Origin: Thermoplasmatota archaeon
GTDB taxonomy: Archaea > Thermoplasmatota > JAKEGO01
DNA length: 64,000 nucleotides
Reading direction: 5' to 3'
NCBI GenBank assembly: GCA_028279595.1
Contig: JANQNK010000003.1
Span: 92,404 to 156,403, forward strand
The position numbers and the translations under genes were made by a program. Of the stretch, positions 1,121-63,087 are shown in pieces. Position 1 is the first letter of the stretch. The number at the start of each line of letters is the position of its first letter. The notes below the pieces were generated by a model. It was not told the DNA's origin. It saw nothing but the letters and a program-made list of their open reading frames with translations, and ran no database searches.

Positions 1121-2200
1121 TCACGCCCTCCTTCCGTACTTGAACATGATGTTGCAGCTGCCCTCCGAAGAGACCATGCACGGTCCAACTGGAGAGGTCG
1201 GCTGGCACGCGCTGCCGAAAAGACCACATTCCGAAGGCTCCATGACCCCCCGGAGGACCTCGCCGCACTGACAGCCAGGTGGTTCAGGGTACTCATCCTC
1301 AAGGTCCGAGAGCCGGTCCTCGAATAGAAGCCTGGCATTGTGATCGTCGAACTCCTCACGAGGTTCCAGACCACTTCCAGGGATGACTGGGAAACCCCGC
1401 CATTTCACGTCCGAAGCCAGGAAGACCCGGTCGATGATCTCGCGGGCCTTTGCATTGCCGTCCTCCTTCACCAGGCGGTCGTAGACGTTCACGACCTTAG
1501 CCTCGCCGTCCGCGACCATCTTCGCCAGTACGTAGGTCCCCATGAGAAGGTCCAGGGGTTCGAAGCCGGCGACGACCTGCGGGATCCCGTACTTCTCGGT
1601 CAATGGATAGTAGATGCTGAGGCCGGTTATCGTGCTCACGTGGCCGGGTTCGATGAGTCCGTCCAGGTTTAGCTCCCCCGAGGAAAGGATGCCGTCAAGA
1701 GCCGCGGGAACCGTCCTGTTGCAGGAGAGGATCGACATGTTCTCCGGTATCCCCCGTGCGATCGTGGCCGCAGCCGTCGGGGCTGTCGTCTCGAATCCCA
1801 CTGAAAGGAACACGACCTCCTTGTCGGGGAGGTTCTTGGCGAGCTCCACCGACTCGTTGATGCTGTAGACGACACGAACGTCGCCCCCTTTCGCCCGCAT
1901 CTGCTGAAGCGAGGAATCGAGCGAGGGAACAGCTGCCATGTCTCCAAAGGTGGTGAGGATGGAACCCCCCATCGCGATAGCCTTCGCCTCCTCTATCTCG
2001 CGAGGCGTCGTCACGCAGACCGGACAGCCAGGCCCCTGGAGGATCCTGACGCCAGTGTCCGCGAAGAGCGAGTCCAGACCGTGCCGGACGAGCGTGTCCT
2101 GATGCGTCCCGCACACGTGCATGAACTGCACGTTGACGTCGAGAGCCTTCAGTTTCTCGACTATCTGCGAGGCCATCTCTCGGTCCCTGAGCTCGAACAT
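1121..2200 (-). CDS. hypD: [NiFe]-hydrogenase maturation protein HypD
   Basis: 359 aa with HypD motifs: MHVCGTHQD, GPGCPVCVTT, GFETTAPT, PGCQCGEVLRG. Confidence 0.9.
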   Translation of the reverse strand: MFELRDREMASQIVEKLKALDVNVQFMHVCGTHQDTLVRHGLDSLFADTGVRILQGPGCPVCVTTPREIEEAKAIAMGGSILTTFGDMAAVPSLDSSLQQMRAKGGDVRVVYSINESVELAKNLPDKEVVFLSVGFETTAPTAAATIARGIPENMSILSCNRTVPAALDGILSSGELNLDGLIEPGHVSTITGLSIYYPLTEKYGIPQVVAGFEPLDLLMGTYVLAKMVADGEAKVVNVYDRLVKEDGNAKAREIIDRVFLASDVKWRGFPVIPGSGLEPREEFDDHNARLLFEDRLSDLEDEYPEPPGCQCGEVLRGVMEPSECGLFGSACQPTSPVGPCMVSSEGSCNIMFKYGRRA

Positions 2201-2252: not shown

Positions 2253-2813
2253 TCAAGGCTTTGGAAGCGGAAGCCGTCCGTATGCCTTGTTGACCTCGCG
2301 GTTGACAAGGACGAAGTCTGCTTCATCCGTGCACGGCCCCGATTGACCACAATCCCTCATCCATATCTCATCTCCGGAAGAGAGCGACCCATCACCATCG
2401 ACGTCGACGAAGACGATGAACAGCGTGATGTTCCTGTTCCTCAGACCATCCGGGTCCCTAGAATGGAAATAATCACCGAACGTAAGGTTGGATGCGTTGA
2501 AGGCAGCTTGACTGAACGCAGCGTCGTCCAGGTCTCCCATCATTGGTACCGGGAATCCCGACGGATCATCGATCTTCGGAAGACAGTCCCTCGGACCATC
2601 GACCCCGAATGATACGTTCGAGGCATTGATGGTCCGGATCGCATCGACCTTGATCCTCCAGGTCTCGTTGAAAGTCGTGAGATGCCATTCAATGTAGGTA
2701 GGGCCCAGTTCATCCGATCCAGTATCGAACAGGCTGTTCAAGTAGGGTGCGGTGAGGATTAAGGCTAGCAACACTATCCCTGCAATGGGTTCGATCGGTG
2801 GAAATTCCTTCAT
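2253..2813 (-). CDS. Membrane-anchored pilin-like-domain protein, divergent member of the tandem paralog array
   Basis: 186 aa. N-terminal TM (IAGIVLLALILTAPYL). C-terminal blocks shared with the next four genes: YFHSRDP, IVFVDVDGDGSLSSGDEIW, ...YGRLPLP. Confidence 0.7.
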   Translation of the reverse strand: MKEFPPIEPIAGIVLLALILTAPYLNSLFDTGSDELGPTYIEWHLTTFNETWRIKVDAIRTINASNVSFGVDGPRDCLPKIDDPSGFPVPMMGDLDDAAFSQAAFNASNLTFGDYFHSRDPDGLRNRNITLFIVFVDVDGDGSLSSGDEIWMRDCGQSGPCTDEADFVLVNREVNKAYGRLPLPKP

Positions 2814-2875
2814 AGAACAACCTCTTGTTTATCTATATTCGAACGTATTGACATCATCGGATAAGAGGTCTTGTG

Positions 2876-3550
2876 TCAAACACCTGGTAAAACCAATTCG
2901 CCATACGAATCCCCACGCTTCTCATTGACCATCCTGAACCTGAAGTCCTCGTCGGCTGGCCCCCCATTTTCAACCGATCTGATCCTGATGATGTCCCCGG
3001 CAGAAAGCTTTCCATCCGCGTTCACATCCATGTAAACGATCGCAAGTGTATGGTTTTGAGAGGCCGGCGGAGATCCAGCCGGGTCCCTTGAATAGAACCT
3101 ATTGTGTGGTGTGATGTCGGCGTCATTGTAATCGATCTGACTGAAGTTGATATCGATCAGGTCCCCCTCCATTCGGATGTTCTCATCCGAAGGATCGTCC
3201 CAGACGGTCACGAGCCTATTAAGGTTCAAGATCGACCAACTGACCTCATCGAGGGATTCAGATTTTACGTCGATGATCTCGATGATGTAATTGTCACCTT
3301 CGACACTGACCCTCCAGGCGATCGTGGTGACACCACGACAGCCAGGATCTAAATCTGGATCATTCGATGTAAATGCCATCCATCCCACCGTAAGAATAAC
3401 GATCAGTACGATGGTTATCGCCACCGCTACATTGATCGGATCTGGTCTCTTGACAGGTCTCCGGTATGGTGGTCGCTGCCAGTCTTCACCGTAGGGCGAA
3501 ATGGGTCCTGGTCTCGGTCTTCGTTTCATCGGTGGACTCCTGTCATCCAT
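2876..3550 (-). CDS. Membrane-anchored pilin-like-domain protein (paralog array member)
   Basis: 224 aa. Arg/Pro-rich N-terminus, one TM (VAVAITIVLIVILTVGWMAF). Then TTIAWRVSVEGDNYIIEII, RFYSRDP, VYMDVNADGKLSAGDIIRIRS, EDFRFRMVNEK, YGELVLPGV. Confidence 0.75.
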   Translation of the reverse strand: MDDRSPPMKRRPRPGPISPYGEDWQRPPYRRPVKRPDPINVAVAITIVLIVILTVGWMAFTSNDPDLDPGCRGVTTIAWRVSVEGDNYIIEIIDVKSESLDEVSWSILNLNRLVTVWDDPSDENIRMEGDLIDINFSQIDYNDADITPHNRFYSRDPAGSPPASQNHTLAIVYMDVNADGKLSAGDIIRIRSVENGGPADEDFRFRMVNEKRGDSYGELVLPGV

Positions 3551-3558
3551 CTTATCAC

Positions 3559-4164
3559 CTAAACTCCCGGTAATACCAGTTCGCCGTAAGCATCTTTCGG
3601 CTTCTCGTTAACCATCCTGAACCTGAAGTCCTCGTCGGCCACCCCGCCCTTCTTCACTGATCTTATCCAGACTTCATCACCGCTGTCCATCTTGTCATTA
3701 TCGTTCTTGTCGACGAAGACCACACACAGTGTTGAATTCTTGTTGACGGGAGGATCACCTGAAGGATCCCTTGAGTAGAACCTCGTACCATTTGTAGTCG
3801 TGGCAATGTCGAAGTCCGTTTGATGGTACTTGATATCGCTAAGGTCCCCCTCCATGCTCAAATTCTCACCTGATGGGTCCTGCCAGGTGGTCTTTAATCG
3901 ATTCAGATCCAGAATGGACCAGCTAACATCGGATGAATCCTGAGGTTCAACGTCGATGATCTCGATCAAATAGTTGCCATCCTCCACTGATACCTGCCAA
4001 GCAATTGTACAGGTACCACCCTGAGATCCCGTATAATTATAATCAAAATAATAATACCAGATCATCGTGGCTGCGACAATGATTGTAACGGATATGCAGA
4101 TCACTGCGAATACCTGGATGGGATCCAAGTTCCCTCCCGTCTCCAACGGTCTCATCTTTGCCAT
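3559..4164 (-). CDS. Membrane-anchored pilin-like-domain protein (paralog array member)
   Basis: 201 aa. TM (VFAVICISVTIIVAATMIWYYYF), CTIAWQVSVEDGNYLIEII, RFYSRDP, VFVDKNDNDKMDSGDEVWIRS, EDFRFRMVNEK, YGELVLPGV. Confidence 0.75.
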   Translation of the reverse strand: MAKMRPLETGGNLDPIQVFAVICISVTIIVAATMIWYYYFDYNYTGSQGGTCTIAWQVSVEDGNYLIEIIDVEPQDSSDVSWSILDLNRLKTTWQDPSGENLSMEGDLSDIKYHQTDFDIATTTNGTRFYSRDPSGDPPVNKNSTLCVVFVDKNDNDKMDSGDEVWIRSVKKGGVADEDFRFRMVNEKPKDAYGELVLPGV

Positions 4165-4173
4165 ATCCTCACC

Positions 4174-4855
4174 TCAAACAGATGGCAATACCAATTCACC
4201 ATACGCATACCCAACCTTCTCATTGACCATCCTGAACCTGAAGTCCTCCTCACCATATCCGTCGTTGCTCGATGACCTTATCCAGATGACATCCCCACTA
4301 CTTAGTTTTCCGTCCGAGTTCACGTCCATATATACAATTACAAGGGTTTGGTTCCTAGTCACTGGTGGATCCCCAACAGGCTCCCTTGAATAGAATTTTG
4401 TCGTATTCCGTCACGTCAGCCCGATCATAGTCACTTTCTGTAAAATTGATGTCGATCAGATCCCCTTCCATTCTGATCAGTTCATTGGATGGGTCCTCCC
4501 ATCCTCCATAAATTCGAGTTAGATCCAAGATCGTCCAACCGACCTCGTCGAGCGGCCGTGACTCGACATCGATTATCTCTATGAGATAGTTGCCATCATG
4601 GACTTCAACCCGCCAAGCGATTGGTGTACAATTACAAGAATCACCTGCGAATGATTGCGCCCAGACGTATATTGTCGCCAGAACGACGAGGATAATTATC
4701 GTTACAGCGATCAGAACCACTATGACCTTCCTATTGCTCGCCTTCTGCGTGATCGGTCCATCGTACATCGAAGCCCGTTTCCAATTTTTATCCTTCGGAT
4801 GTATGGGTCCCGGCCGTCGTTTGAGCGGTGGTCTGGCCCGGGTCATGACGGGCAC
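4174..4855 (-). pseudogene. Frameshifted member of the pilin-like paralog array (track ORFs 4355..4855 and 4174..4362 are its two halves)
   Basis: The upstream half ends ...DRADVTEYDKILFKGACWGSTSD*. Shifting frame at the A4 run (T4 on + strand, 4396-4399) restores ...TEYDKFYSREPVGDPPVTRNQTLVIVYMDVNSDGKLSSGDVIWIRS...EDFRFRMVNEK..YGELVLPSV, colinear with the intact paralogs. Confidence 0.8.
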
Positions 4856-5160
4856 CTCTCCATTAAGTCATTGCGGGACCTCCAGCTGCGCTGAAAGTAA
4901 GAGCCCGGGCGATCCAGGTGTATGCAACCGCCAACAAAAAAAGGTGGTGAGGTGAACAAGACGGCTATCATCGGACTGCTGTTCCCTCTTCGCCCTCGGG
5001 GTCCTCGCGTGTGCGGCCTGGGTCCTACTCGCCAGTACGTGGTCGTGTGCCTTTTTCCGCGAGAACTTCCCTTCAAGGCTGCCTGCTCATCCTGCCTCAT
5101 GGGAGGTCCCGTTTTTATTACAAACTCGGTGTATTAATAATTAATCGAGGGAAATGTCAT

Positions 5161-5772
5161 TCAGGTCGGTGGTAGAGTAATGTCGCCGATCGCTTCCCCC
5201 CTCGATTCATCGATCAATCGGAACCGGTAGTCCTCGTCGGCCGCTCCGCCGTTGTCCATCGACCTTATCCATATGACATCCCCGCTCCCGATCCGGTGGT
5301 CCCCGTCGACATCCATGAAGACGATGCAAAGCGTAACATTCGTGCTCTTTGGTGGGTCCCCGACGGGTTCTCGTGAATAGAATGTGTTGTATGGCCGGGT
5401 ATCGGCGGTGTCGTAATCGGACTGTACGAAATTGATATCGTCCAATCCTCCTTCGATTCTGATAGACTCTCCGTCCGGGTCGTCCCAGTTGGCCACCAGA
5501 AAGTTGATATTGAGGACGGTGAACCCGACATCATCGAGGTCCATGGGATCGAATTGTATGATCTCCACGATGTAATTGTCTCCCTCTACAGAGACCATCC
5601 ATGCTATCGTTGTAACCTCGCCATTGTCGCCGTACCCGCCATCGGAAGGATCCCCGTCTCCGCCGTCCATCCAGAAATAATAGAGAGCTCCCAGGGCTAT
5701 CCCGGTGATGATGTATGCGACGATCAGTATCCCTGCTGTCGAAGCGATCACGTCGTCCCTTAACCTGAACAT
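5161..5772 (-). CDS. Membrane-anchored pilin-like-domain protein (paralog array member)
   Basis: 203 aa. Short N-terminus plus TM (TAGILIVAYIITGIALGALYYFW), TTIAWMVSVEGDNYIVEII, TFYSREP, VFMDVDGDHRIGSGDVIWIRS, EDYRFRLIDES. Confidence 0.75.
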   Translation of the reverse strand: MFRLRDDVIASTAGILIVAYIITGIALGALYYFWMDGGDGDPSDGGYGDNGEVTTIAWMVSVEGDNYIVEIIQFDPMDLDDVGFTVLNINFLVANWDDPDGESIRIEGGLDDINFVQSDYDTADTRPYNTFYSREPVGDPPKSTNVTLCIVFMDVDGDHRIGSGDVIWIRSMDNGGAADEDYRFRLIDESRGEAIGDITLPPT

Positions 5773-5820
5773 ATCGGTCCCTGGAGAATGGAAAGACCTG
5801 GTTTCCTAAAAGGATTTTCC

Positions 5821-6081
5821 TCATACGTACTTCTTGCAGTATTCGCAGAACCAGGATACGAACTCGTCGTCGAAAGTGACCTCGTTCCCGCAATTGGGGC
5901 AGGTCCGCCCCCTGTCCTTCCTCGGGACCACCGGCTCCGTATCGATGTCGATCTCGATGTTCGGCAACGATGGAACTATCCCTGGAAGTGGCGCCCCCTC
6001 CTCGTTCCTCGCCCCGCAGACAGGGCACTTGGTTGCTCCGGCCAGTGCGGCCCCGCACTCGATGCATGATATCGGCTGCAA
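5821..6081 (-). CDS. Small double zinc-ribbon protein
   Basis: 86 aa. N-terminal CIECG..x..CPVCG. C-terminal TCPNCGNEVTFDDEFVSWFCEYCKKYV. The C-terminal motif is shared with 6144..7358 and 7406..7606. Confidence 0.65.
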   Translation of the reverse strand: MQPISCIECGAALAGATKCPVCGARNEEGAPLPGIVPSLPNIEIDIDTEPVVPRKDRGRTCPNCGNEVTFDDEFVSWFCEYCKKYV

Positions 6082-6143
6082 TCGCTCGACCTCGCGTTGT
6101 GATGGATAGGGACAACTCGCTTAAGACATTCCCGGTGGAAGGT

Positions 6144-7358
6144 TCAGATGTACTTGTAGCAGCCGTCGCACCACCAACGGTCGTACTGCTCGATATACCT
6201 CGTTTCCTTTCCACAGGTCCCGCATGTGTGATCGACGACCTGCGGTGTGCCGATATCGAAGACGTCCATGGCCGGCTCAGCGGCAGGGGCGCGTCTCGGC
6301 TCGCCGTAGGTCGCTGTCCTGTACGGGTCCTGATATTGTGGTGCATAACCCTGGGAATAGGCTGGCGCGGGTCCGGCATCCCTGTACGGATCGGGTCCCG
6401 GTCCGGCCTCCGCATACCTCTTCATCGCAATGCTCTCGGTGAGTTCGTCCTCCCCGACGGCGTTCCGGTGAAGTGCGATGCTGACAAGGAAGAAGACGGC
6501 TGACACGAAGGTCAGATACCAACCGACATCAGGTCGCCATTTCGATCCCACGTCCGCGGGGGTCCCGTCAATATCTATTGTCGCGGAGTCCTCTCCAGAG
6601 AACGACTTGTGTGGACCGTCATCGAACATGAACTCCAGCAACGGATTGTCGGTCGATCCCTCTCCCTCGACCTCATCCTCCCATGCGTTCGGATGGGATG
6701 CCATGAAATATCCAGCTGCAACGAGGGTCACGAGGACCGTAAGGATCCCCAGGATGATCGGAAGCCTCTTCAACACCAGGTTCCGACCGCCGGCCACCCC
6801 GGCAGCGATGATGAAGATCATGGTCAGGAGGCCCAGGATGACGGCACCTGTCATGATGGCCCTGGTGTTCTCGTAGACCTCCTTGACCTCCCCCGTATTG
6901 ATATCGTCCCAGTCCTGTGACTGGCTCTCGGATATTTGTTCGCCGTCGCCTGAGCCCTCGAGCCTCAACGTCATCTCCTCGAGGCTCATCTCGACGTCCA
7001 TGTCGAGCTCGACATAGACGCCTCCCTCCTCGGCCTCTATGGATATCGTCCACAGGTACCACGAGGTCCAGAACGATGCCAGGAGCAGGATGAAGGCCAG
7101 TATCGCGAAGATGGTCGCCATGGTGAACCGCTTGCTATTCTCACCGGAGAATCCGACCATCGGACGGCTCGGCCCGTATCGCGGTGGGTAGTTACCATAA
7201 CTCTGGCCATAAGGCTGTCCATACGGTTGCGAGTAGGGCCGCGACTGCGGCGACCCGCAACTCGGGCACATGGTCGCATCCCACGACAGCGGTATACCGC
7301 AGCCTGAACAGTAGCGTTCGGTGGTCTGTCCGTTGGTCAACTGGTTCCCCTCTGCCAC
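6144..7358 (-). CDS. Four-TM membrane protein flanked by N- and C-terminal zinc ribbons, with Pro/Tyr-rich repeats
   Basis: 404 aa. N-terminal CSGCG...CPSCG. PY-rich run SRPYSQPYGQPYGQSYGNYPPRYGPSRP. Four hydrophobic helices. C-terminal TCGTCGKETRYIEQYDRWWCDGCYKYI. Confidence 0.7.
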   Translation of the reverse strand: MAEGNQLTNGQTTERYCSGCGIPLSWDATMCPSCGSPQSRPYSQPYGQPYGQSYGNYPPRYGPSRPMVGFSGENSKRFTMATIFAILAFILLLASFWTSWYLWTISIEAEEGGVYVELDMDVEMSLEEMTLRLEGSGDGEQISESQSQDWDDINTGEVKEVYENTRAIMTGAVILGLLTMIFIIAAGVAGGRNLVLKRLPIILGILTVLVTLVAAGYFMASHPNAWEDEVEGEGSTDNPLLEFMFDDGPHKSFSGEDSATIDIDGTPADVGSKWRPDVGWYLTFVSAVFFLVSIALHRNAVGEDELTESIAMKRYAEAGPGPDPYRDAGPAPAYSQGYAPQYQDPYRTATYGEPRRAPAAEPAMDVFDIGTPQVVDHTCGTCGKETRYIEQYDRWWCDGCYKYI

Positions 7359-7405
7359 TTGATATCTGCTCTAATTATTAACGTTTATGGAATCCGTTGA
7401 TACGG

Positions 7406-7606
7406 TCATCCAACGTACTCCTTGCAGTTGTCGCAGTACCAGACCACGATCGACGGCACGAACCTGACGTACTTCCCGCACTTGGGGCAGGTGCGGCTGG
7501 CCTGGTTGAACTCCTCCTTCTTGGGAGCCGGGGCTGACCCGCAAGCGGGGCACGTGTCGGCGCCGACCCATGAGACGCCGCATTTCGAACACGTCGATGG
7601 TTCCAT
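7406..7606 (-). CDS. Small double zinc-ribbon protein
   Basis: 66 aa. CSKCG...CPACG, then TCPKCGKYVRFVPSIVVWYCDNCKEYVG. Paralog of 5821..6081. Confidence 0.65.
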   Translation of the reverse strand: MEPSTCSKCGVSWVGADTCPACGSAPAPKKEEFNQASRTCPKCGKYVRFVPSIVVWYCDNCKEYVG

Positions 7607-7636
7607 ACTGTTCCGAGAGAATCATTGATGGGGTAA

Positions 7637-11344
<3,708 letters not shown>

Positions 11345-11398: not shown

Positions 11399-12319
11399 CT
11401 AGATCCGTCCGTCGGACTTCAGGGCCCTGATCGTGTCGCTGATGTGCTCGGTCTCGAGCTTCCCGGTGTCTTCCTTCGCCACCCTTTCGGAGGTCATCCG
11501 GGGAACGTCCTTGATGACATGCCATGGGACCTTGACGAGGTAGGGCGTCCTGAGGTTGTGCGGGTGCCCGAAGGCCATCAGCTCGCCGGCGTGGTTGCCG
11601 TGGTCCGCAGTTGCGATGACCTTCCCTGTCATGTGCTCGAGAAGCTTGTCGACCTCGCCCATGACGAGGTCCAGGTTCTTCGTGTATCCGCTCCAGACCC
11701 GGTCCATGGGGACGGCCCCCTCCTTGGCGACCTTCCAGATCCCCTTCTTGTCGACCTCCTCGAGGGCGTCGTCGACGGAATGGAACGTGCCAGCATCCAC
11801 CCTGACGAGCTCTGCGTCGGCGATGAACGGGTGATGAGGTTGATTGTAATGGACGATGAGCCGCTTGTCCGGGTAACGGTTCAAGGCCTCGATCGCGGCA
11901 AGGGTCACTTCCTCGGGCGGCACGGTCTTCAGGTCGGCCGACCAGCCGAAGTCCCAGACATCGATGACCTTGTGGAACGGGACCCTTCCGAAGGTGCGTT
12001 TCAGATGGGTGGTGGCAAGGTGCGGGTTGCCTGCGATGTACACGATGTCCTTGCACTTGCCGCCGAAGTTCCATTCGGACCATTCCTGGGTCTCGCTGCC
12101 GCCTGAGACCTTCCATGGTACATCCATCTCGAGCCTGTCTGAGTACATGTCGTACCTGCAGGCGTCCAGAAGGATCAGGTGGTCCCACTCCTCCTCAACG
12201 ACCTTGACAGCATTGGCCTTGGAGAACTTGCGATAGCGCAGCCTGGCGTATCGTCTCAGGAATCGGATGTAGTTCCGATACAAGCCCTCCCATCCGAGGC
12301 GCTTCCAAGGGTTCACCAT
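11399..12319 (-). CDS. Alkaline-phosphatase-superfamily protein (phosphodiesterase/nucleotide pyrophosphatase-like)
   Basis: 306 aa. LILLDACRYDMY and IATADHGNHAGE resemble the metal-ligand blocks of the type I phosphodiesterase/AlkP core. No finer assignment is possible. Confidence 0.45.
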   Translation of the reverse strand: MVNPWKRLGWEGLYRNYIRFLRRYARLRYRKFSKANAVKVVEEEWDHLILLDACRYDMYSDRLEMDVPWKVSGGSETQEWSEWNFGGKCKDIVYIAGNPHLATTHLKRTFGRVPFHKVIDVWDFGWSADLKTVPPEEVTLAAIEALNRYPDKRLIVHYNQPHHPFIADAELVRVDAGTFHSVDDALEEVDKKGIWKVAKEGAVPMDRVWSGYTKNLDLVMGEVDKLLEHMTGKVIATADHGNHAGELMAFGHPHNLRTPYLVKVPWHVIKDVPRMTSERVAKEDTGKLETEHISDTIRALKSDGRI

Positions 12320-20477: not shown

Positions 20478-21287
20478 CTAGTAGCCCTTGATCTGGAAGA
20501 TGCAGCGGTCCGCCCCGTCCAGGATGGCGGAGTCGATGTTCATGACGACATTGCCCATGACCTCGGATACCACGCGGGAATACAGACCCCGGCAGATCAT
20601 GCACAGGATCGGATTGCTGGCCTCGCTCTCCTGCCACGGGCAGACCTCGACCATCACGGAGCCCTTTCCGTCGTCGACCTCGAGCACTATCGGGTCGCCT
20701 CCGATCTCGGAGAGGATGCTGTTCGCGAACTCCAAGGCGGAGGAAAGGTCCTGTCCCGCGGACTCCTTGGCGCCGTAGAGCTCGGAGATGTCGTTGCACA
20801 TCTCGGAGATGAACATGTTCCTGACCTCGGGCTGGACGTTCTTCAGAAGCAGCGGCGTCAGGTTGATGAGGATCTTCCTGATCTTCTCCTGGGCCATGTT
20901 CTCGTCGATGAGCTGCTTCATCTTGAGGAGACATTTCGTCCTCGCCTTCAGCTCGAGATAGTTGACCGGTTTGACCAGGAAATCGTCGGCCCCCGCCTCG
21001 AGGCCCTTTAGATAGGACTCGAAGTCAGAGAGAGCGGTTATCATGATGATGGGTATGAGGGCAGTGGACTTGTCGGCGCGCAGCCTCCGGCAAACCTCGA
21101 ACCCGTCGACCTTCGGCATCATGACGTCAAGGAGAACCACGTCCGGGTCATCGGAATGTACCTTTTCAAGACCCTCCTCACCGTCGTATGCGGTCGATAC
21201 CTCGTAACCTTCCGACGTGAGGTGCGCGTGAAGCAATCTCACGTTCTCCACGTGGTCGTCCACCACGAGCACTCTGGGTTTCTTCAT
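20478..21287 (-). CDS. Response regulator: receiver domain plus Cys-containing V4R-like output domain
   Basis: 269 aa. REC region: VLVVDDH...VVLLDVMMPKVDG...ITAL...DFLVKP. The C-terminus ...VEVCPWQESEASNPILCMICRGLYSRVVSEVMGNVV...DGADRCIFQIKGY matches the V4R-type Cys pattern. The start overlaps the kinase stop (ATGA, 21284-21287). Confidence 0.75.
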   Translation of the reverse strand: MKKPRVLVVDDHVENVRLLHAHLTSEGYEVSTAYDGEEGLEKVHSDDPDVVLLDVMMPKVDGFEVCRRLRADKSTALIPIIMITALSDFESYLKGLEAGADDFLVKPVNYLELKARTKCLLKMKQLIDENMAQEKIRKILINLTPLLLKNVQPEVRNMFISEMCNDISELYGAKESAGQDLSSALEFANSILSEIGGDPIVLEVDDGKGSVMVEVCPWQESEASNPILCMICRGLYSRVVSEVMGNVVMNIDSAILDGADRCIFQIKGY

Positions 21288-24200
21288 TGCACCGCCTCCT
21301 CTCCCTGGGCTAGTCTTGAATACATCTCAAGTTCCTTTAATAACTTGTCCTTGGAGAAGTCCTCCTTCTTCGTGATGGAGAGGACGTTCTCCCTCATCTC
21401 CTCGACCTCCCTGCGCGAGAGGTGCTTGGCCGTGAGTATCATTACTGGCACATCCCTGGTGGTGGGATCCTTCTTGAGCTCGGTGAGCACCTCGATACCG
21501 CTCATGTCGGGCATGATGAGGTCGAGAATCACGAGGTCCGGTCGCTCCTTGCGGACCATGTCCAGGCCCTCGACGCCCCCGTAGGCCTTCAGCACGCTGT
21601 AACCCTCCTTCTCGAGGATGGTCGAAACGAGCTTGACCGCCTGGGGCTGGTCGTCGACGACGAGCACGCGCATCGGTCCCTCCACCGGCTTGATGGAGAT
21701 CTTCTTGAGCCTGTCGAGGAGCTTGTCCTTCTCTATCGGCTTGACGAAGAAGTCGATCGCGCCCATGCTGATGCCCTTCGAGGTGTTCTCGAGGACTGAT
21801 ATGATGATTATCGGGATCTCGTTGGTCTCCGGCATGGATTTCAGACGCTTGAGGACGTTCCATCCGTTGATGTCCGGCAGGAGGATGTCCAGGAGTATGG
21901 CGAACGGCTCGAGCTGCTTGGCCTTCCTGATGCCAGACTCCCCGTCGATGGCCATGATGACGTCGTATCCTTCGTCCTCGAGGATGGTCTGCATCAGATG
22001 CCTCGTCTCCTCCGAATCGTCGATCACCAGCACCTTGCTCCTCTGTGTCGTCGGTTTCGAAAGGACGGGCGCTGGTTCAGGGATGCCGACCGGTCTTCCG
22101 ATGGCCTGGTCGAGCGGGGTCCCGCCCCTCGCCACCGGGCCCTGTGGCATGGTCTTCACCGGTTTCGGCGCGGGTTTCGATCCCTTTACCGGCTTCTCGA
22201 CCGCCTTCGGTCTCGGCTTCCTGGGTTCGGCCTTCGGCGCCGGTCTTGGCTTGGAGGCCTTCGGCGGTGGACCCGTCGGCCTCGGTCTCCTTATCTGTGT
22301 GGGCTTATCGAACGATAATGCTGGTGGTTCCTCGACCGTCCCTCTGGCGACCGGTCCTGCCTCGGCAGCCTCGTCGGCGAAGTTGTAGACGGGTTTCGCG
22401 ATCTCCTTCGGCACCTCAGGCACCGGGATAGGCTCTGGGACGGGTTCAGGTTCGGGTTCGGGTGCTGGCTGGATTTCCTCCATCGGCCCGACCGGCGTGG
22501 CAGCGGGCACCGTGAAGGAGAAGGTCGATCCAGCACCGACGACGCTCTTGAACCAGATCCGCCCGCCGTGGAGCTCGACCAGCTTCTTGGCCAATGGCAG
22601 TCCCAGGCCTGTTCCCTCGTGCTCCCTGGACACCGACATGTCGAGCTGAGTGAACTCCCTGAATATCGTCTCGTACTCGCTCTTCTTGATGCCGATACCG
22701 GTATCGATGACGTCTATGCGGACCATGTCCTTGACAGGTCTCGCCGTGACCCTGACCAGTCCGTACGACGGTGTGAACTTGATGGCATTGCTCATGAGGT
22801 TGTACAGGACCTGCTTGACCCTGAGGACATCGCCCTTGATCTTCGGAATGTTGTTGGGGATGTCGACGCTGAACGAGAGGCCCTTCTTGGTGTAGAGGGG
22901 CTTGACGATCTCCTGGACCTCGCGGACGTTCTCCTCGATGTCGAACACCTGGATGTGCAGGTCCATCCGGCCCGCCTCGATCTTGGACAGGTCCAGTATC
23001 TCGTTGATGAGCTCGAGCAGGTGCCGTCCCGCGCTGTGGATATCGTGAAGGAACTCCTCCTGCTGGGGCGTCAGGTCTCCGAACGAGCGGCTCATCAGGA
23101 CCTCGGAGAAGCCGATGATCGAGTTCAACGGGGTCCGGAGCTCGTGGGACATGTTCGCCAGGAACTCAGACTTGAGCTTGTCGGCACGGAGGAGCTTCCT
23201 GTTCAGCTCCGTCAGCTCCATGTTCATTCCCGAGAGCGAGCTCGTACGCTCCATGACCAGCGTCTCGAGTTCGGAGTACGACCTCACAAGTTCCCTGGTG
23301 AGACGGTTCAGCGAAATGGTCAGCTCACCGACCTCGTCCCTGGAACGCACCGGCAGTTCATACTTCTTGGAGGACTTCGGGCGCTTGCCGTCGGTCTTCG
23401 TCAGCGTGGTCATGATGCGGTTCGTGTTGTCGGTGAGTTCGGTGAGCGACCTCGTTATCTTCCTGACGAAGAGCCATGCGATGGCGCTGCCGATCACGGC
23501 GAATACGATTGTGAAGAATATGATCGCCTGTTCCAGGTCCCTTACCGGAGCCATGGCCTCGTCCTCGGGAACGACCACGCAGATCCCCCAACCCAGCTCG
23601 TCGAGGTACACGTATGCGCCCATCTCCCTCTGGCCGCTGATATCGTTCTGGAACGTCAACGTGCCGGATCCGCCCTCGAGGACCTCCTCGACGATCTCGA
23701 GGTCGCGGGCCGAGTCCAGGTCGTCTATCTCCTCCCTGTCCGGATGGGATATTATTCGTCCCTGGTAGTCCACGAAGAAGATGTAACCGTCGCTGCCGAC
23801 CTTGATGTTCTGGATGGTCTCGTCTATGAAGTCCAGCGAGAGGACGCCGTTGAGGACGCCGATGACCTCGCCGTCATCTATCACCGGTGAAGATAGGAAT
23901 ATCGTCGGGACACCGTTCTCGTTCCCTGGAGCCAATTCATCCGGCAGTACCTTGAACATGATCATCGGTGTCTTCGTCGTTATCACGGTATCAAGGAAGC
24001 TGAGGTCCTCCGTTATCCCGGCTGCATTGAAGGGATGCCTGTGCCTGATGACCTTCGAGGTGTCGAGTACCTCGATGAAGTAGTACGTCCCGTACGCATT
24101 GTACAGGCTCTCGAACTTGGTCTCGAACGTCGTCAGGTTCCATTCCCCGACAGCGGCGATGAACTCGGGGGAATCGGCCACGGAGACGATGTCTCCGAGG

Positions 24201-24409
24201 GACCCGTTGATGAAGCTCGCGATCCAATATCCGTTGTTGCGGGCGATCTCGAGGTTCCTCTCGTTGGTCTCCTCCCGGATGTTGTCGGAGAACTCGCGGT
24301 GGGTGAAGTAACCGAGGGTACCGATGGTAACTGTGATGAATGCGATGAACACAACGACCATCTTCAGTTTCATAGACTTGCGCAGGACCACCGTCTCACC
24401 CTTCTCCAC
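21284..24409 (-). CDS. Hybrid sensor histidine kinase (TM, Cache-like ectodomain, TM, HAMP, HisKA, HATPase, long Pro/Lys linker, two receivers)
   Basis: 1041 aa. H-box SHELRTPLNSI. N/G boxes LMSNAIKFT, DTGIGI, GTGLGL. Two REC domains at the C-terminus (VLVIDDSEE...LLDILLPDINGW and VLVVDDQPQ...ILDLIMPDMSG). The start is GTG 24409 or ATG 24373 (MKLKMVVVF). Confidence 0.88.
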   Translation of the reverse strand: MEKGETVVLRKSMKLKMVVVFIAFITVTIGTLGYFTHREFSDNIREETNERNLEIARNNGYWIASFINGSLGDIVSVADSPEFIAAVGEWNLTTFETKFESLYNAYGTYYFIEVLDTSKVIRHRHPFNAAGITEDLSFLDTVITTKTPMIMFKVLPDELAPGNENGVPTIFLSSPVIDDGEVIGVLNGVLSLDFIDETIQNIKVGSDGYIFFVDYQGRIISHPDREEIDDLDSARDLEIVEEVLEGGSGTLTFQNDISGQREMGAYVYLDELGWGICVVVPEDEAMAPVRDLEQAIIFFTIVFAVIGSAIAWLFVRKITRSLTELTDNTNRIMTTLTKTDGKRPKSSKKYELPVRSRDEVGELTISLNRLTRELVRSYSELETLVMERTSSLSGMNMELTELNRKLLRADKLKSEFLANMSHELRTPLNSIIGFSEVLMSRSFGDLTPQQEEFLHDIHSAGRHLLELINEILDLSKIEAGRMDLHIQVFDIEENVREVQEIVKPLYTKKGLSFSVDIPNNIPKIKGDVLRVKQVLYNLMSNAIKFTPSYGLVRVTARPVKDMVRIDVIDTGIGIKKSEYETIFREFTQLDMSVSREHEGTGLGLPLAKKLVELHGGRIWFKSVVGAGSTFSFTVPAATPVGPMEEIQPAPEPEPEPVPEPIPVPEVPKEIAKPVYNFADEAAEAGPVARGTVEEPPALSFDKPTQIRRPRPTGPPPKASKPRPAPKAEPRKPRPKAVEKPVKGSKPAPKPVKTMPQGPVARGGTPLDQAIGRPVGIPEPAPVLSKPTTQRSKVLVIDDSEETRHLMQTILEDEGYDVIMAIDGESGIRKAKQLEPFAILLDILLPDINGWNVLKRLKSMPETNEIPIIIISVLENTSKGISMGAIDFFVKPIEKDKLLDRLKKISIKPVEGPMRVLVVDDQPQAVKLVSTILEKEGYSVLKAYGGVEGLDMVRKERPDLVILDLIMPDMSGIEVLTELKKDPTTRDVPVMILTAKHLSRREVEEMRENVLSITKKEDFSKDKLLKELEMYSRLAQGEEAVQ

Positions 24410-24435
24410 CAGACAAAGGATATAGATTCTTCACA

Positions 24436-24443
24436 TATTTATA
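24436..24443 (-). promoter_or_regulatory. TATA box candidate for the histidine kinase/response regulator operon
   Basis: Minus-sense TATAAATA, 27 nt upstream of GTG 24409. Confidence 0.4.
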
Positions 24444-24458
24444 CTCGCCGATAGGCCC

Positions 24459-24494
24459 GAAACTGCCTAAAACGGCAGTTTTCTTTATAAAAAA
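24459..24494 (-). terminator. T6 tract plus hairpin between the CheY-like gene and the kinase promoter
   Basis: Minus-sense GCTTTTTTATAAAG, then GAAAACTGCC-GTTTTA-GGCAGTTTC (8-9 bp stem). Confidence 0.4.
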
Positions 24495-24565
24495 GCACGA
24501 TTTGGGCATTTTTCTGATTTCGAGTGGAAAAATGGGTCTTAAAATGTCGGATATTGGAGAGAAGG

Positions 24566-24937
24566 TCACTGTCCGAGGAACTTCTTGACGAGGTTCGGGA
24601 ATTCGACCGTGTCGATGGGCTTCGGTATGTACCCGACGCAGCCCGCCGCATGGGCCTTCTGCTCGTCACCCCGCATGGCGTGGGCGGTGAGCGCGACGAT
24701 GGGGATCCCGGACGTCTTAGGGTCCTCCTTGAGCATCTTCGTCAGCGTCAGGCCGTCCATCTTGGGGAGCTGTATGTCCATGAGGATGAGGTCGAAGTCC
24801 CTGTACTTGAGGATCTCGATGGCCTCCTCGGCGTTGAGCGCCTCCGTGACGACATATTCCTGCTGTTCCAGAAGTATGCGGACCAGCTTGAGGTTCATCA
24901 CGTTGTCCTCGACCACCAGAACGTTCTCGCCTGACAT
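24566..24937 (-). CDS. Single-domain CheY-like response regulator
   Basis: 123 aa. VLVVEDNVMN...ILMDIQLPKMDG...ALTAHAM...YIPKP. Confidence 0.88.
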   Translation of the reverse strand: MSGENVLVVEDNVMNLKLVRILLEQQEYVVTEALNAEEAIEILKYRDFDLILMDIQLPKMDGLTLTKMLKEDPKTSGIPIVALTAHAMRGDEQKAHAAGCVGYIPKPIDTVEFPNLVKKFLGQ

Positions 24938-49397: not shown

Positions 49398-50252
49398 ATG
49401 AGAGCGAGGGGACCAAAGCACCGAGCCCGCATCATTGTACTAGTTTCGATGTTCGCCCTGATCCTCATTGCCATCCCGGTAGCAGACGGGAATCCAGTTC
49501 CCTATTATCCAACCTTCACAGCAAAGGACGGCAATCCGATCCCAGCTGTCAACGATACCGACGTCTATCTGGCAGAGGAACTGTTGATATTCACATTCTC
49601 ATCCAAGAGCGTCGATGTCCAGGCTGAATATCTATTTCGAAACGACGGTCCATACCATGTCAATCTCTCGATATTCCTTCCCTTCAATGACACTGCCACT
49701 GTATTCGACCTCAAGGTCGACGGGATCGACCACTCATATCAGGAGTACCAGATGGATCTGCACCGATACTACTGGTGGGGGAGTGGACGCAGCTATCACG
49801 GTGTCCTCTTCGGTGTCTCCTTCGGACCGCACGGATCCCGTAACGTAAGCATTGGATATCAACGCGAGTTGCATGTTTCATACGACTACGAGGACAATGA
49901 CAAACTGCATCATTCGTTCAACTACATGGTATGGACGACCAAGTACTGGAACCACTCCATCGATCGTGCACGGTTCGAATTCTGGTTACCCAGGTCTCTC
50001 TACGAGGAAATAGACTATTACGACTTCAATAGCTCATATGAATCGGGAAAATATACCGTTCTCGTCGAAGAATACGAGGATTGGTCCCCGTCCGATTATT
50101 ACGGTGAGGTAGGAATAAACTGGTGGAGATTCCGTCCTGAAGAACCTGACGTGATCCCGCAGATATTCCTGATCGGTCTCGGATCAATTGCAGCCGTCAT
50201 AGTGTTCTTCGGGTCCTGGGAGTACCTGGACCGTCGAAAATCAAGGAAATGA
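49398..50252 (+). CDS. Hypothetical secreted protein with N-terminal signal/TM and C-terminal TM anchor
   Basis: 284 aa. ARIIVLVSMFALILIAIPVADG at the N-terminus and IFLIGLGSIAAVIVFFGSW near the C-terminus. Asn/Tyr/Asp-rich. Lower GC than its neighbours (lines 49921 and 49981 count 30/60 and 25/60). Confidence 0.6.
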   Translation: MRARGPKHRARIIVLVSMFALILIAIPVADGNPVPYYPTFTAKDGNPIPAVNDTDVYLAEELLIFTFSSKSVDVQAEYLFRNDGPYHVNLSIFLPFNDTATVFDLKVDGIDHSYQEYQMDLHRYYWWGSGRSYHGVLFGVSFGPHGSRNVSIGYQRELHVSYDYEDNDKLHHSFNYMVWTTKYWNHSIDRARFEFWLPRSLYEEIDYYDFNSSYESGKYTVLVEEYEDWSPSDYYGEVGINWWRFRPEEPDVIPQIFLIGLGSIAAVIVFFGSWEYLDRRKSRK

Positions 50253-56300: not shown

Positions 56301-56791
56301 GAGTCGACGAACACCTGCACCGACCCGCCGACGGTCCTGGTGTCGAACATGGTCCCGATCACCTCGACGTACAGGAAGAGCTGGTCGCCTTCACGGACCG
56401 CTCCCGTGGATAGCAAGTTGATACCGGAATAGGCTGCGTCACCGTCGTCGTCCATGAACAGCGAGACGTCGTCCCAGTCCGAGAAATCGCCGTCGACGGT
56501 CATGGACTCCTCCTGCGGAAGGAAGTAGATGTATGCTGAGAGTATGAGTGCCGCGACCAGCATCACCACGGCGACGACGTTCCCGATCCTGGACATGTCG
56601 CGGCCCCTCCTAGGCCTCTTGGGTGTCTGTTTCGAGGGATCGTCGTAGATGGACCTCTTTCGCCTCTTGCCGATGGTCGTCGTCACACCTGCAGCGAGGA
56701 TGACGGTGCTGGGAGTGCCATGGCTAGGCACATCGGCATACTCGATAATTCCACCCGTCTGTCCCGATACCGCCGCTGATTCCGCCACCAT
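53348..56791 (-). CDS. Large cell-surface protein: duplicated CBM9/DOMON-like modules, Ig-like region, ~11 tandem propeller-like repeats, C-terminal sorting-signal-like anchor
   Basis: 1147 aa. TM at residues ~68-90. VDGDFSDWDD... and IDGLFHEWAN... modules each end in YRYSD...W.W. Repeats of ~40-50 aa follow the form (V/I)DI...G..Y.L..DG.V......GW. C-terminus DDIPELGLLVPIFAILGIFIARRREQR. The start could instead be the internal Met at residue 66. Confidence 0.75.
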   Translation of the reverse strand: MVAESAAVSGQTGGIIEYADVPSHGTPSTVILAAGVTTTIGKRRKRSIYDDPSKQTPKRPRRGRDMSRIGNVVAVVMLVAALILSAYIYFLPQEESMTVDGDFSDWDDVSLFMDDDGDAAYSGINLLSTGAVREGDQLFLYVEVIGTMFDTRTVGGSVQVFVDSDASSRSGYSILGIGAEYLVEVYGREDGIVTSNYYRYSDQGFGPEKRDWNWSHISHVPSRVHNRRIEIGMPYHNGDDALLVFRVSDDKGNEDLSNVLPLVHEGKRAPVVISADPLITEGTILSPDSMYDVLDVEFKATGGSCKVRNLTVEVSGTVADTDVGQISLIRDGSAIDSHLLSDGKVVLDMDDVEIIGESSVSIRVTIAPQATEGTVLTMDVADVATNSKAVTNELRGCSWYLAAPPDGYVIDGLFHEWANTTEDVRGDARRNVDITDYKGARSQGKVFFYLGVDGEMMGGAWIPASRPIAIKGGTGSQQDLPLTLPVSNDAAYIFLSVMPADEGYSPEGFPIVANRLIIVTGYLGEVEEARHYRYSDTAPADWPWIADSAPVEAANGHTELEVSVDRDYLDFQVYFHFTTWRNNTGDHTEPMTISGSTGEDDPFALTLNGSAHWSQTGRSWEPITALPEGVEYEDIAAGDDGTVYILQSNGSVLHSVSVDGGWRPFGTGNPGNVADGFVGIASVPDDGSVVTMRMDGRSYRSSSRTDGWHMVTDTEPPGGSSFVDISSNGGDLYALRNDGAVFTTTGSEGWSRYAQDADPGPGQGSVGICTRSDGSDVVISVLTNDGTVHVSEDTGSGWNGLGSAGLPHSASFVDISNSEGSPCVLLADGSVHMYEDGGWEEFGSGDPEIPAGTGYIGLTAGAENELLVQRNDGQVHRCADPTDGWSRFGTGTPAAPVSSRYVDIAADPDGVHALKSDGSVLSSIDGREPWVLLADAGDDSSWRSITSAGTELYVLKADGAVSRISTSDGSVSEWGDAGEDASWSSIATDGTFVYALRLDGMASVRGVSGSSWTAKGDAGNGTSWVSMASSTASPYVYAMDASRAVCKSVGGTNSTWTDWAPSGHGTAWISLAAGEYYVFALNANGTIDRALMATSEWNTSYGTVDAWAMAGMDAVVFEQGDDIPELGLLVPIFAILGIFIARRREQR
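53432..54958 (-). repeat. About 11 tandem coding repeats (40-50 aa each) in the surface protein
   Basis: Examples: DIAAGDDGTVYILQSNGSVLHSVSVDGGW; VDISSNGGDLYALRNDGAVFTTTGSEGW; VDISNSEGSPCVLLADGSVHMYEDGGW; VDIAADPDGVHALKSDGSVLSSIDGREPW; SSIATDGTFVYALRLDGMASVRGVSGSSW; ISLAAGEYYVFALNANGTIDRALMATSEW. Confidence 0.7.
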
Positions 56792-56992
56792 GGGTTCCTA
56801 CCCCGTTCCTGTTTAACGACTGGCACACATAAAACCCTTTTCATGGATGGCTTCGGAAGGAAATCAGCTGAATCACCCCACTTGCGACAGGTACTGGCTC
56901 AGGAAAAACGCTCGCTCATTCCAGCGGTGAAGAGAGGGGCCGGAGTAGTCTGTTAACGTGTAATACGACCCCGCAGCACTGGTGGAACCGTC

Positions 56993-58030: not shown

Positions 58031-58053
58031 GCAATTCCGTCAGTCGGTCTCAG

Positions 58054-58061
58054 TATAAAAA
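58054..58061 (-). promoter_or_regulatory. TATA box candidate for the GT2 gene (leaderless spacing)
   Basis: Minus-sense TTTTTATA, 24 nt upstream of ATG 58030. Confidence 0.45.
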
Positions 58062-58152
58062 GGTTGACGACCACTGTTTCCACTCCAGCCAGTCATCCAG
58101 CCTGGACCGCTGCCGACAGAACTTTTAAGACCGATGTATCGAATGGAGGCCT

Positions 58153-59619: not shown

Positions 59620-59637
59620 GGGTTCATAGGAACAATT

Positions 59638-60762: not shown

Positions 60763-60773
60763 GCCTGACTCTC

Positions 60774-62493: not shown

Positions 62494-62539
62494 CAACGAG
62501 ACCATTACATTTGTTACATCGTGTAGAGGAGGCTCTACT

Positions 62540-63067
62540 ATGAGAAAACTAAAGAAGATCTGGGTGGACCAGGAGGCGGTATCTCCCGTCATCGCCGTCA
62601 TTCTGATGGTGGCGATCACCGTGGTCCTCGCCGCGGTTCTGTACATGTGGGCACAGAGTTTCGTGCCGACAGGCAAGAACACGCCAGTGGCGACGGTCAC
62701 GGTAAGCAAGAGCCAGAACAACTATGAGCTGTACATCAGCAGCATCGAGCCCGCTGCAGCCGGTGACAGCGTCAAGTATCAGCTCTTGGACAGCAACCGC
62801 GTCCCGGTCGAGCAAGGTGAGTTGAACGACGTGTACAACAAGGTACTCAGGAATCCCATGAACGGAGGGATCCTGTCCAACGTCAGTTGGAGGGACTCCA
62901 ACGGGGATGACAGACTGAGCACCGGTGACACGATAGTACTCCTCGGTGCGGAGAACGATCGCTGGAACAACGAGCCAGTCGCTCCCGGCGTCGCCGATTC
63001 CGGAATGATCTTCCGGATAATCTTCGACCCGACGGAGAAATCGATCGCGTCGATCGAGCTGACCTGA
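62540..63067 (+). CDS. Archaeal type IV pilin-like protein (class III signal peptide, DUF1628-type N-terminus)
   Basis: Trimmed from 62465 to ATG 62540, preceded by GAGGAGG (62526-62532). MRKLKKIWVDQEAVSPVIAVILMVAITVVLAAVLYMWAQSF is the canonical prepilin leader plus hydrophobic helix. Confidence 0.85.
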   Translation: MRKLKKIWVDQEAVSPVIAVILMVAITVVLAAVLYMWAQSFVPTGKNTPVATVTVSKSQNNYELYISSIEPAAAGDSVKYQLLDSNRVPVEQGELNDVYNKVLRNPMNGGILSNVSWRDSNGDDRLSTGDTIVLLGAENDRWNNEPVAPGVADSGMIFRIIFDPTEKSIASIELT

Positions 63068-63087
63068 TCAGGCCCAGCTGGAACAAC

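Follow-up and report, generated by a model that had tools for sequence, protein, structure and literature searches.

A cluster of pilin-derived membrane proteins and double zinc-ribbon proteins in a Thermoplasmatota archaeon

Archaeal type IV pilins (Pilin_N PF07790/TIGR02537) consist of a hydrophobic helix and a beta-sandwich, and solved examples include the Haloferax volcanii pilus (8fj5), Natrinema PilA2 (8gi2) and a Cuniculiplasma filament (8rey). ArlF and ArlG (FlaF/FlaG) are pilin-like archaellum proteins that are not polymerised; the arl operon contains ArlH/I/J, and the soluble domain binds the S-layer. Archaeal genomes are rich in pilin-like proteins of obscure role, and surveys list zinc-ribbon proteins in pilus-type loci unexplained. 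Double-zinc-ribbon proteins and membrane proteins with an N-terminal zinc ribbon were described as uncharacterised companions of archaeal type IV pilus and bindosome loci, among them arCOG06883 (double zinc ribbon, Thaumarchaea) and arCOG07264 (Sulfolobus bindosome) (Makarova, Koonin and Albers 2016, PMC4858521). Here, a cluster of eight genes was analysed within a stretch of 64,000 nucleotides of a Thermoplasmatota archaeon (contig JANQNK010000003.1), which is referred to below as the window. The cluster codes for three zinc-ribbon proteins (DZR66, TM404 and DZR86) and for five paralogous membrane proteins, which are referred to as the array.

It was concluded that the cluster encodes a module of surface proteins that derive from pilins and have plausible partners in the zinc-ribbon proteins, and that it is no self-contained pilus system. 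With slightly better than even confidence, the putative function assigned to it was that of an anchored, calcium-binding surface-protein array of pilin origin with cytoplasmic zinc-ribbon adaptors. The theme of pilin-like genes with zinc-ribbon companions is known, and the cluster is no new kind of system. Current views are not overturned by it, and the inventory of archaeal surface proteins is refined in a lineage that is poorly sampled.

The array resembles archaeal type IV pilins in its hydrophobic helix and beta-sandwich, in profile homology and in the tandem multi-copy layout. It differs from them in that its copies have neither a prepilin-peptidase site nor a Pilin_N match, several of them carry long cytoplasmic tails, no assembly genes are found nearby, and the ectodomain, of ~150 aa, exceeds theirs in size and contains a conserved DxDxDG...D loop that has no description in Pfam. 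The combination of a single N-terminal transmembrane (TM) helix and an extramembrane beta-sandwich is shared with ArlF/ArlG, and the anchored, unpolymerised behaviour proposed for the array would be the same. This is a likeness of mode and not of family membership; the similarity was seen at the fold level only (the FlaF soluble domain 4p94 was among the top structural matches to a paralog, E 4e-3), with no sequence-level match, and no arl genes were found by the Pfam scan of the 40 larger open reading frames (ORFs) of the window. The loci of arCOG06883 and arCOG07264, compared by description (PMC4858521), are similar to the cluster in having ribbon proteins beside pilin-like genes. Unlike these loci, the cluster has no ATPase and platform genes, and its ribbon is also found fused to a pilin-like domain.

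Pilin-derived paralogs

The five paralogs were 30-54% identical in pairs and had one N-terminal TM helix each, in agreement with the five single-TM paralogs of the original prediction, which had been made from the DNA letters of the window. The paralog profile was compared with 1.84 billion representative proteins and retrieved 66 proteins at E<=1e-3, 18 of them at E<=1e-30. Many family members start with canonical EAVSPVI(A/G)VILMVAITVVLAAVLY N-termini, the class III signal peptide having the form …EA|VSPVIAVILMVAITVVLAAVLYVWAQSF in many of the matches, and Pilin_N was matched by 17 of the 49 aligned members. The array copies gave no match to Pilin_N or TIGR02537 even at E<=1. When the family profile was compared with solved archaeal pilins, E-values of 7e-11 (8gi2), 9e-10 (8fj5), 2e-9 (9myg) and 4e-7 (8rey) were obtained. 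Judging from these profile matches, the family is a rare and unnamed subfamily within archaeal type IV pilins. No relatives of the paralogs were found among 185,579 GTDB species representatives; the best match there to HypD, the product of a flanking gene, was 54% identical, and the HypD-anchored loci of those genomes held no cluster genes. Scans of metagenome contigs with protein patterns and a degenerate RNA pattern gave no match.

An AlphaFold (AF2) model of the 203-aa paralog was calculated from the 49-sequence alignment. It reached a predicted local distance difference test score (pLDDT) of 89.6 and showed a helix at residues 6-36 followed by a beta-sandwich; a run with an 8-sequence alignment reached a pLDDT of 50 and was discarded. 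The six best Foldseek matches of the model were subunits of archaeal pili or archaella together with FlaF, namely 8fj5 of H. volcanii, 8rey of Cuniculiplasma, archaellins and the FlaF soluble domain. A fold search in BFVD returned generic Ig-like matches only. The pilin-like ectodomain assumed in the original prediction was thus confirmed by the profile homology to solved pilins and by the quality of the model.

The processing of prepilins needs G, A or S at position -1 (PMC4371748). A scan with a FlaFind-type pattern (charged residue at -2, G/A/S at -1) found a prepilin-peptidase site in none of the five array copies; the site was present in the family members P0008, P0020, P0031, P0042 and others, and in a further pilin encoded at 62.5 kb of the window. 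A relic of the +3 proline was recognised ahead of the hydrophobic helix in the array copies, where DPI or PPI aligned to SPV. Because no prepilin-peptidase site was found in the five copies, the paralogs more likely stay anchored, and of the secreted or anchored subunits envisaged earlier for the cluster, secreted filament subunits were not supported. N-terminal tails of 40-50 aa, presumably cytoplasmic, were observed in the 224-aa paralog, in a frameshifted copy (Pro/Arg-rich, ~40 aa) and in the paralog par228 of the related contig L001. The three tails have the common motif RRP(RP)GPI(S/H)P, and the form KRRPRPGPISP of the 224-aa paralog recurs in the other two.

The five tandem genes thus code for diverged members of the type IV pilin superfamily, with a hydrophobic helix, an Ig-like beta-sandwich and a calcium-type loop, which have lost the peptidase site and, in several copies, gained Pro/Arg-rich N-terminal tails of a putative cytoplasmic location. 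We proposed that such proteins would remain in the membrane in an N-in/C-out orientation, like ArlF/ArlG or other non-polymerising pilin-like proteins. The loss of the site together with the tails points to anchored surface proteins instead of filament subunits, and would mark a route from a pilin to an anchored surface protein.

Alternatively, the paralogs might be genuine minor pilins or pilus-base subunits, assembled with the 62.5-kb pilin by PilB/PilC/PibD encoded elsewhere and cleaved by a divergent peptidase. The 62.5-kb protein is a canonical archaeal pilin: it matched Pilin_N with an E-value of 9.6e-13, TIGR02537 with 43.7 bits (cut-off 20) and the family profile with an E-value of 4e-40, and its signal peptide is MRKLKKIWVDQEA|VSPVIAVILMVAITVVLAAVLYMWAQSF. 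Its ectodomain belongs to the array superfamily and is a shorter version that resembles P0035. A prepilin peptidase and assembly genes are therefore implied elsewhere in the genome. A role as minor pilins would fit the homology of the paralogs to pilins, the presence of this pilin of the same superfamily in the same window and the proline relic, and minor pilins are often many and divergent (PMC4858521). However, G/A/S at -1 with a charged -2 was found in 0/5 copies, contrary to the processing rule (PMC4371748), and tails of at least 40 aa, as well as the N-terminal zinc-ribbon fusions found in relatives, are unlike a short cleaved leader. Moreover, the assembly genes were not found in the window. 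Among its 40 larger ORFs, none matched T2SSE, T2SSF or Peptidase_A24 (pilus ATPase, platform and prepilin peptidase), just as the original prediction had noted for PilB/PilC-type and prepilin peptidase genes. The minor-pilin explanation was hence regarded as unlikely.

The ectodomain of the paralogs carries a loop that resembles a known type. In EF-hand and dockerin loops, acidic ligands stand at positions 1, 3, 5 and 12, G at position 6 and a hydrophobic residue at position 8. A pattern of 12 residues, D-x-[DN]-x-[DN]-G-x-[hydrophobic]-x-x-x-D, was conserved across the 49 sequences of the family, with D at position 1 in 49, D/N at position 3 in 40, D/N at position 5 in 47, a hydrophobic residue at position 8 in 49 and D at position 12 in 48 of them. 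Positions 1 and 12 were the only (near-)invariant residues of the alignment. The DxDxDG…D loop was kept in all array copies and corresponds to D154-x-D-x-D-x-x-I-x-x-x-D165 in the 203-aa paralog. Dockerin profiles matched exactly this stretch, weakly and with scores under every threshold (Pfam Dockerin_1 E 0.075). The loop is predicted to be a calcium-binding site of the EF-hand/dockerin type; it is like those loops in its 12-residue pattern and unlike them in being single and located within a beta-sandwich, with no helix-loop-helix pair or duplicated dockerin. The ectodomains thereby define a family that is rare and unnamed and in which a calcium-type loop is conserved. An N-x-T sequon was found 8-9 residues ahead of the loop in 23 of the 49 sequences, which fits an extracellular, possibly glycosylated domain.

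One array copy, at 4174-4855, proved to consist of two ORFs (4355-4855 and 4174-4362) with a 1-base frameshift in the A-run of 'GACAAAATTC' at ~4399-4402. The coordinates and the order of the eight genes listed in the original prediction held, and the intactness of this gene did not. The removal of one A restored a paralog of ~223-226 aa, with a likely start at the ATG at 4846, and the two halves matched positions 8-116 and 117-189 of the family profile. The same frameshift was present in L005, a contig of an independent Logan assembly (SRR20820740) that was 100% identical over 3.8 kb. It may mark a true pseudogene or be a sequencing error common to both assemblies.

The dN/dS values of the paralogs were 0.15-0.23, including 0.22 for the 186-aa paralog, the L001 ortholog of which was 60% identical at the amino acid level; the 203-aa paralog had no counterpart at the equivalent position in L001. 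By these ratios, the paralogs are under purifying selection. Their dN of 0.32-0.67 compares with 0.05-0.065 for HypD and for the pyruvate:ferredoxin oxidoreductase (PFOR) encoded on the other flank of the cluster, so that non-synonymous change was 5-10 times that of these two proteins. The G+C content (GC) of the five paralogs was 0.46-0.54 and that of their third codon positions (GC3) 0.51-0.67, compared with 0.607±0.015 and 0.807±0.044, respectively, for 26 Pfam-assigned reference genes of the same window. The GC3 of the three zinc-ribbon genes was native-like (0.74-0.84; 0.84 for DZR66). The comparison of GC with the genome mean that had been suggested earlier was run here against the 26 window genes, and the AT-richness ascribed to the array genes applied to the paralogs and did not extend to the ribbon genes; the counts of 27/60 G+C in line 3901 and 38/60 in the PFOR line 9001 were exact upon recounting. 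The orthologous paralogs par228 and par195 of L001 had an equally low GC3 of 0.59, and par186 of L001 was native-like (0.83).

A decaying or recently transferred island of no current function would account for the frameshifted copy, the low GC3 and the patchy presence among relatives. Four copies are intact, however, with the dN/dS values given above, the calcium-loop residues are invariant, and the low GC3 shared by par228 and par195 indicates that the composition is long-standing and no sign of very recent transfer; such an island was considered very improbable. Instead, an exposed, diversifying cell-surface role of the anchored array, such as adhesion or interaction with the envelope, was proposed, since gene gain and loss, shuffling, the frameshifted copy, the high dN relative to housekeeping genes and the low GC3 would all fit it.

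Zinc-ribbon proteins and their link to the paralogs

DZR66, TM404 and DZR86 have a common architecture, in which an N-terminal ribbon CxxCGx9CPxCG is followed by a variable linker and by a C-terminal ribbon CxxCx12-13W[WYF]CxxCxxY that forms the extreme end of each protein. Four CxxC pairs were found in each of them, which is consistent with the three double zinc-ribbon proteins originally described. The cysteines of DZR66 are C6/C9/C19/C22 in the N-terminal and C40/C43/C58/C61 in the C-terminal ribbon, and those of TM404 are C17/C20/C31/C34 and C379/C382/C397/C400, respectively. DZR86 was 44-47% identical to DZR66 and its 70-aa ortholog. The Pfam family DZR (PF12773) gave 24.6 bits for DZR66 and a further score of 24.3 bits, both under the cut-off of 27.3, and the cysteine pairs were all conserved in orthologs. 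Orthologs of DZR66 were identified in L001 (70 aa), L013, L015 (71 aa) and L016 (66 aa) with dN/dS of 0.10-0.11, and orthologs of DZR86 in L001 and L015 (87 aa) with dN/dS of 0.23. Pfam, NCBIfam and PADLOC assigned no family above threshold to any of the eight cluster genes; a defence-system reading was dropped, as PADLOC gave no match.

The hydrophobic segments of TM404 (78-96, 167-185, 201-219 and 278-296) all lie between its ribbons, which are connected to the membrane core by P/Q/Y-rich linkers. With four TM segments, both ribbons are expected on one side of the membrane, probably in the cytoplasm. A MARVEL match scored 18 bits, under the cut-off of 32.8. No full-length homolog was returned by a word-indexed search, which gave ribbon-motif matches only; by reading the neighbourhoods, a single homolog was found in L016 (329 aa, 29% identity, E 6e-35). 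It adjoins the DZR66 ortholog and has no N-terminal ribbon. TM404 is best regarded as a membrane protein related to the small double-ribbon proteins. It is dispensable, since one related contig (L001) has no such gene. The original prediction had suggested it as the membrane platform of a surface structure. A platform of the PilC/TadC/ArlJ type was rejected, because no T2SSF/PilC match was obtained, the gene is missing in L001, a single homolog is known and no ATPase gene lies nearby. As to TM404 homologs next to pilin-like paralogs, a search also proposed earlier, the one homolog stood beside a DZR66 ortholog, and L001 keeps both the ribbons and the paralogs with no TM404.

The ribbon motif of the cluster was also noticed in proteins of other archaeal metagenome-assembled genomes (P0002-P0005, 425-672 aa). 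They contain several copies of it, CPxCGxxLxYIxxYDRWYC (2-4 by motif scan), many of which have E or D in place of the fourth Cys, and two TM segments at the end. They look like a separate unnamed family built from the cluster-type ribbon.

A direct connection between ribbons and pilin-like domains was provided by two proteins of other archaea, P0028 and P0034. Both start with a ribbon of the C-terminal type of the cluster, e.g. CPNCTNETNWIEEHSRWYCYTCQGY, followed by a Q/P/Y-rich low-complexity linker, a TM helix and the family ectodomain. A hidden Markov model made from seven cluster ribbons matched only these two of the 68 family proteins, with E ~1e-9. P0034 is encoded in the NCBI metagenome-assembled genome GCA_028279645.1 with no small ribbon gene nearby; a 1147-aa protein of the window (53.3-56.8 kb) was tried as the match of its 1148-aa neighbour and was not homologous.

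Further, the window contig and the contigs of four relatives keep ribbons and paralogs close together, in gene orders that differ. The order is DZR66, TM404, DZR86, paralog, non-coding element and four paralogs in the window; DZR70, DZR87, element and three paralogs in L001; PFOR, paralog and DZR70 in L013; paralog, DZR71, DZR87, element and paralogs in L015; and DZR66 followed by the 329-aa TM404 homolog in L016. One ribbon type is thus found in three settings (in free form, on a four-TM protein and in fusion with a pilin-like ectodomain), which makes the link between ribbons and pilins concrete. We proposed that the zinc-ribbon proteins (two soluble and one with its ribbons split by four TM helices) would be cytoplasmic partners of the anchored proteins and, as bivalent adaptors, would bind their membrane-proximal tails or bring them into clusters.

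Several points weigh against such an anchored array with zinc-ribbon adaptors. The Foldseek scores of the paralog model were modest (E 1.5e-3 to 6e-3, TM-score 0.31-0.44), a missing FlaFind motif does not prove that the paralogs escape processing by an unusual peptidase, and the calcium binding, the topology and the protein-protein contacts are predictions drawn from sequence. TM404 is absent from the otherwise syntenic L001, where the small ribbon genes are only 92 bp apart. The other points bear on a different explanation, by which the two groups would be unrelated neighbours, namely a native zinc-ribbon set beside PFOR with a role of its own and an independent, variable island of pilin-like surface genes. 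The ribbon genes have a native composition and the paralogs do not, and promoter-like boxes with a U7 run separate most of the paralogs from the ribbons. The syntenic contigs all come from close relatives (PFOR 88% identical in nucleotides and 91% in amino acids), so that the co-location is possibly an inherited neighbourhood and weak evidence. In addition, no ribbon gene lies close to the canonical family members of L003 and L017, and the association of ribbons and pilins is therefore not universal. Against the view of unrelated neighbours stand the two independent fusions of this ribbon type to the ectodomain, the interleaving of paralogs with ribbon genes in the window, L013 and L015, where they are not merely adjacent, and the published precedent of zinc-ribbon proteins in type IV pilus loci (PMC4858521). 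We took this explanation to be possible but doubtful. The partnership of zinc ribbons and pilin-like subunits suggested in the original prediction was thus supported as a link, by the fusions, the co-location and the precedent, and was not supported as a universal rule.

A separate arrangement of the same ectodomain superfamily was observed in L017 (Logan SRR20820740, a 36-kb contig with 56% GC). The cluster there, at 6001-9194, comprises the gene of a 524-aa protein with three tandem ectodomains, convergent with three short pilin-like genes.

The 305-bp region and transcription units

The spacer of 305 bp between the 203-aa paralog and the following gene had the predicted length, and it is not a plain spacer. 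It contains a conserved non-coding element that was 79% identical to L001 in nucleotides, compared with 58-68% for the adjoining cluster genes and 82% for HypD. The element and the boxes ahead of it were located at 4872-5146 (-) in the window, 9489-9761 in L001 and 1505-1778 in L015, and the element was found as one copy per locus. It is composed of perfect-identity blocks of 52 and >40 nt with variable segments between them, its ends are complementary over 10 bp (CGGGACCUCC ... GGAGGUCCCG), and a conserved internal U7 run lies at ~4943-4949. The consensus of archaeal TATA/BRE elements is AT-rich. The AT-rich boxes ATTAATTATTAATA and TTTGTAATAAAAA at 5112-5146 were near-invariant in the window, L001 and L015, and they are putative TATA-like promoter elements.

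No Rfam family matched the element at the gathering threshold in the window; at E<=10 the sole match was a chance-level Guanidine-I on the opposite strand. No tRNA or tmRNA was detected in the element. A conserved fold received weak support, with three compensatory pairs, effectively two independent sequences and a minimum free energy z-score of -1.05; the G-U pairs and the GU-to-GC changes favoured the gene strand. RNase P RNA, SRP RNA and C/D or H/ACA RNA were rejected, as they had no Rfam support and were unconvincing upon inspection by eye. The 10-bp terminal inverted repeat had suggested a miniature inverted-repeat transposable element, which was also rejected on account of the one copy per locus and of a conservation higher than that of the flanking coding DNA. 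An anti-Shine-Dalgarno function of the terminal helix was considered a weak explanation, because the main ORF has its own Shine-Dalgarno (SD) sequence closer to the start codon. The 305-bp region is a candidate for a promoter followed either by a small RNA that ends at the U-run or by a leader that regulates the paralog operon downstream of it; the element may be a new archaeal regulatory RNA.

Directly past the element, at 4846-4871 (-) and at ~9760-9795 in L001, a tiny ORF begins with an AUG 7 nt after GGAGGU; it has 2 codons in the window and 10 codons in L001 and L015. It runs into the paralog start by a UAAUG/AUGA stop-start overlap, which could be translational coupling or chance.

All eight genes lie on the minus strand, and the coordinates from the ORF listing gave spacers of 47, 62, 48, 305, 9, 8 and 62 bp, so that the original prediction was right in the strand and in all seven lengths. 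The spacers of 8-9 bp between the downstream array genes carry SD-like sequences, which fits an operon of the downstream paralogs, and the 186-aa paralog has its own AT-rich upstream spacer and a T5 run past its stop codon. A single transcript of eight genes is unlikely, because the cluster is interrupted midway by the AT boxes, the conserved element and the U7 run; the number of transcription units is probably two or more. The array beyond the 305-bp region would be under its own promoter-like element, with the non-coding element acting as a small RNA or a regulatory leader.

A bolder proposal may also be considered, in which the paralogs would form an undescribed class of non-filament, pilin-derived TM proteins. 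In these, a cytoplasmic zinc ribbon would link the cell interior with a calcium-binding domain at the surface, in the manner of a receptor or an anchoring device; the ribbon would belong to the protein by fusion or be provided in trans by DZR66, DZR86 and TM404. Control of the array would lie with a new structured RNA of archaea, either a leader similar to a riboswitch or a small RNA, with the U7 run as internal attenuator. We gave this proposal little credence. The locus could gain in importance should a function be demonstrated for the ribbon-tail coupling or for the non-coding element.

Layout of the locus and other genes of the window

The cluster (2253-7606) is flanked by HypD at 1121-2200 (-) and by the single-chain PFOR at 7646-11344 (+). 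The features analysed are listed in Table 1.

Table 1. Positions in the window of the cluster genes, the non-coding features and the canonical pilin.
Feature	Position	Strand	Basis
DZR66, 66-aa double zinc-ribbon protein	7406..7606	-	ORF; four CxxC pairs
TM404, 404-aa four-TM membrane protein, ribbon at each terminus	6144..7358	-	ORF; TM segments
DZR86, 86-aa double zinc-ribbon protein, paralog of DZR66	5821..6081	-	ORF; identity
203-aa pilin-derived paralog, short N-terminus, one TM helix, beta-sandwich ectodomain	5161..5772	-	ORF; AF2 model
Two AT-rich boxes, promoter-like	5112..5146	-	Near-invariant in window, L001 and L015
Conserved non-coding element, ~240 nt	4872..5111	-	Alignment with L001 and L015
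Frameshifted pilin-derived paralog	4174..4855	-	Family-profile matches to both halves
201-aa pilin-derived paralog	3559..4164	-	9 bp past preceding gene; SD-like GGTGAGGAT ahead of start
224-aa pilin-derived paralog, 40-aa cytoplasmic tail	2876..3550	-	ORF; tail motif KRRPRPGPISP
186-aa paralog, most divergent	2253..2813	-	ORF; 30-33% identity to other copies
Canonical archaeal type IV pilin, outside cluster	62537..63067	+	Pilin_N, TIGR02537, family profile

Between PFOR and MgtE, a 306-aa ORF with no Pfam match was found at 11399-12319 (-). It had no counterpart in the 20-kb stretch of L001, where PFOR adjoins MgtE. A two-component cluster was located at 20478-24937 (-), comprising a 1041-aa hybrid histidine kinase with a Cache sensor, a response regulator whose output domain is MetOD1, and a stand-alone receiver. 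The gene at 49398-50252 (+) codes for a protein of 284 aa that matched no Pfam family and has a signal-like N-terminus and a TM anchor at the C-terminus; its GC3 of 0.59 equals the low values of the array, and it is a candidate for a further atypical surface gene.

The canonical pilin stands in a cell-surface and glycosylation neighbourhood that extends over 53348-63883. The 1147-aa protein encoded there matched no Pfam family; it has one TM segment close to the N-terminus and a TM anchor at the C-terminus, and it contains repeats such as 'DG[ST]V…'. Next come a GT2 glycosyltransferase (56993-58030), a protein with BNR repeats (58153-59619) and a Gly-rich acidic TM protein of 199 aa (61712-62311), and a GT4-family transferase (63209-63883) is encoded past the pilin.

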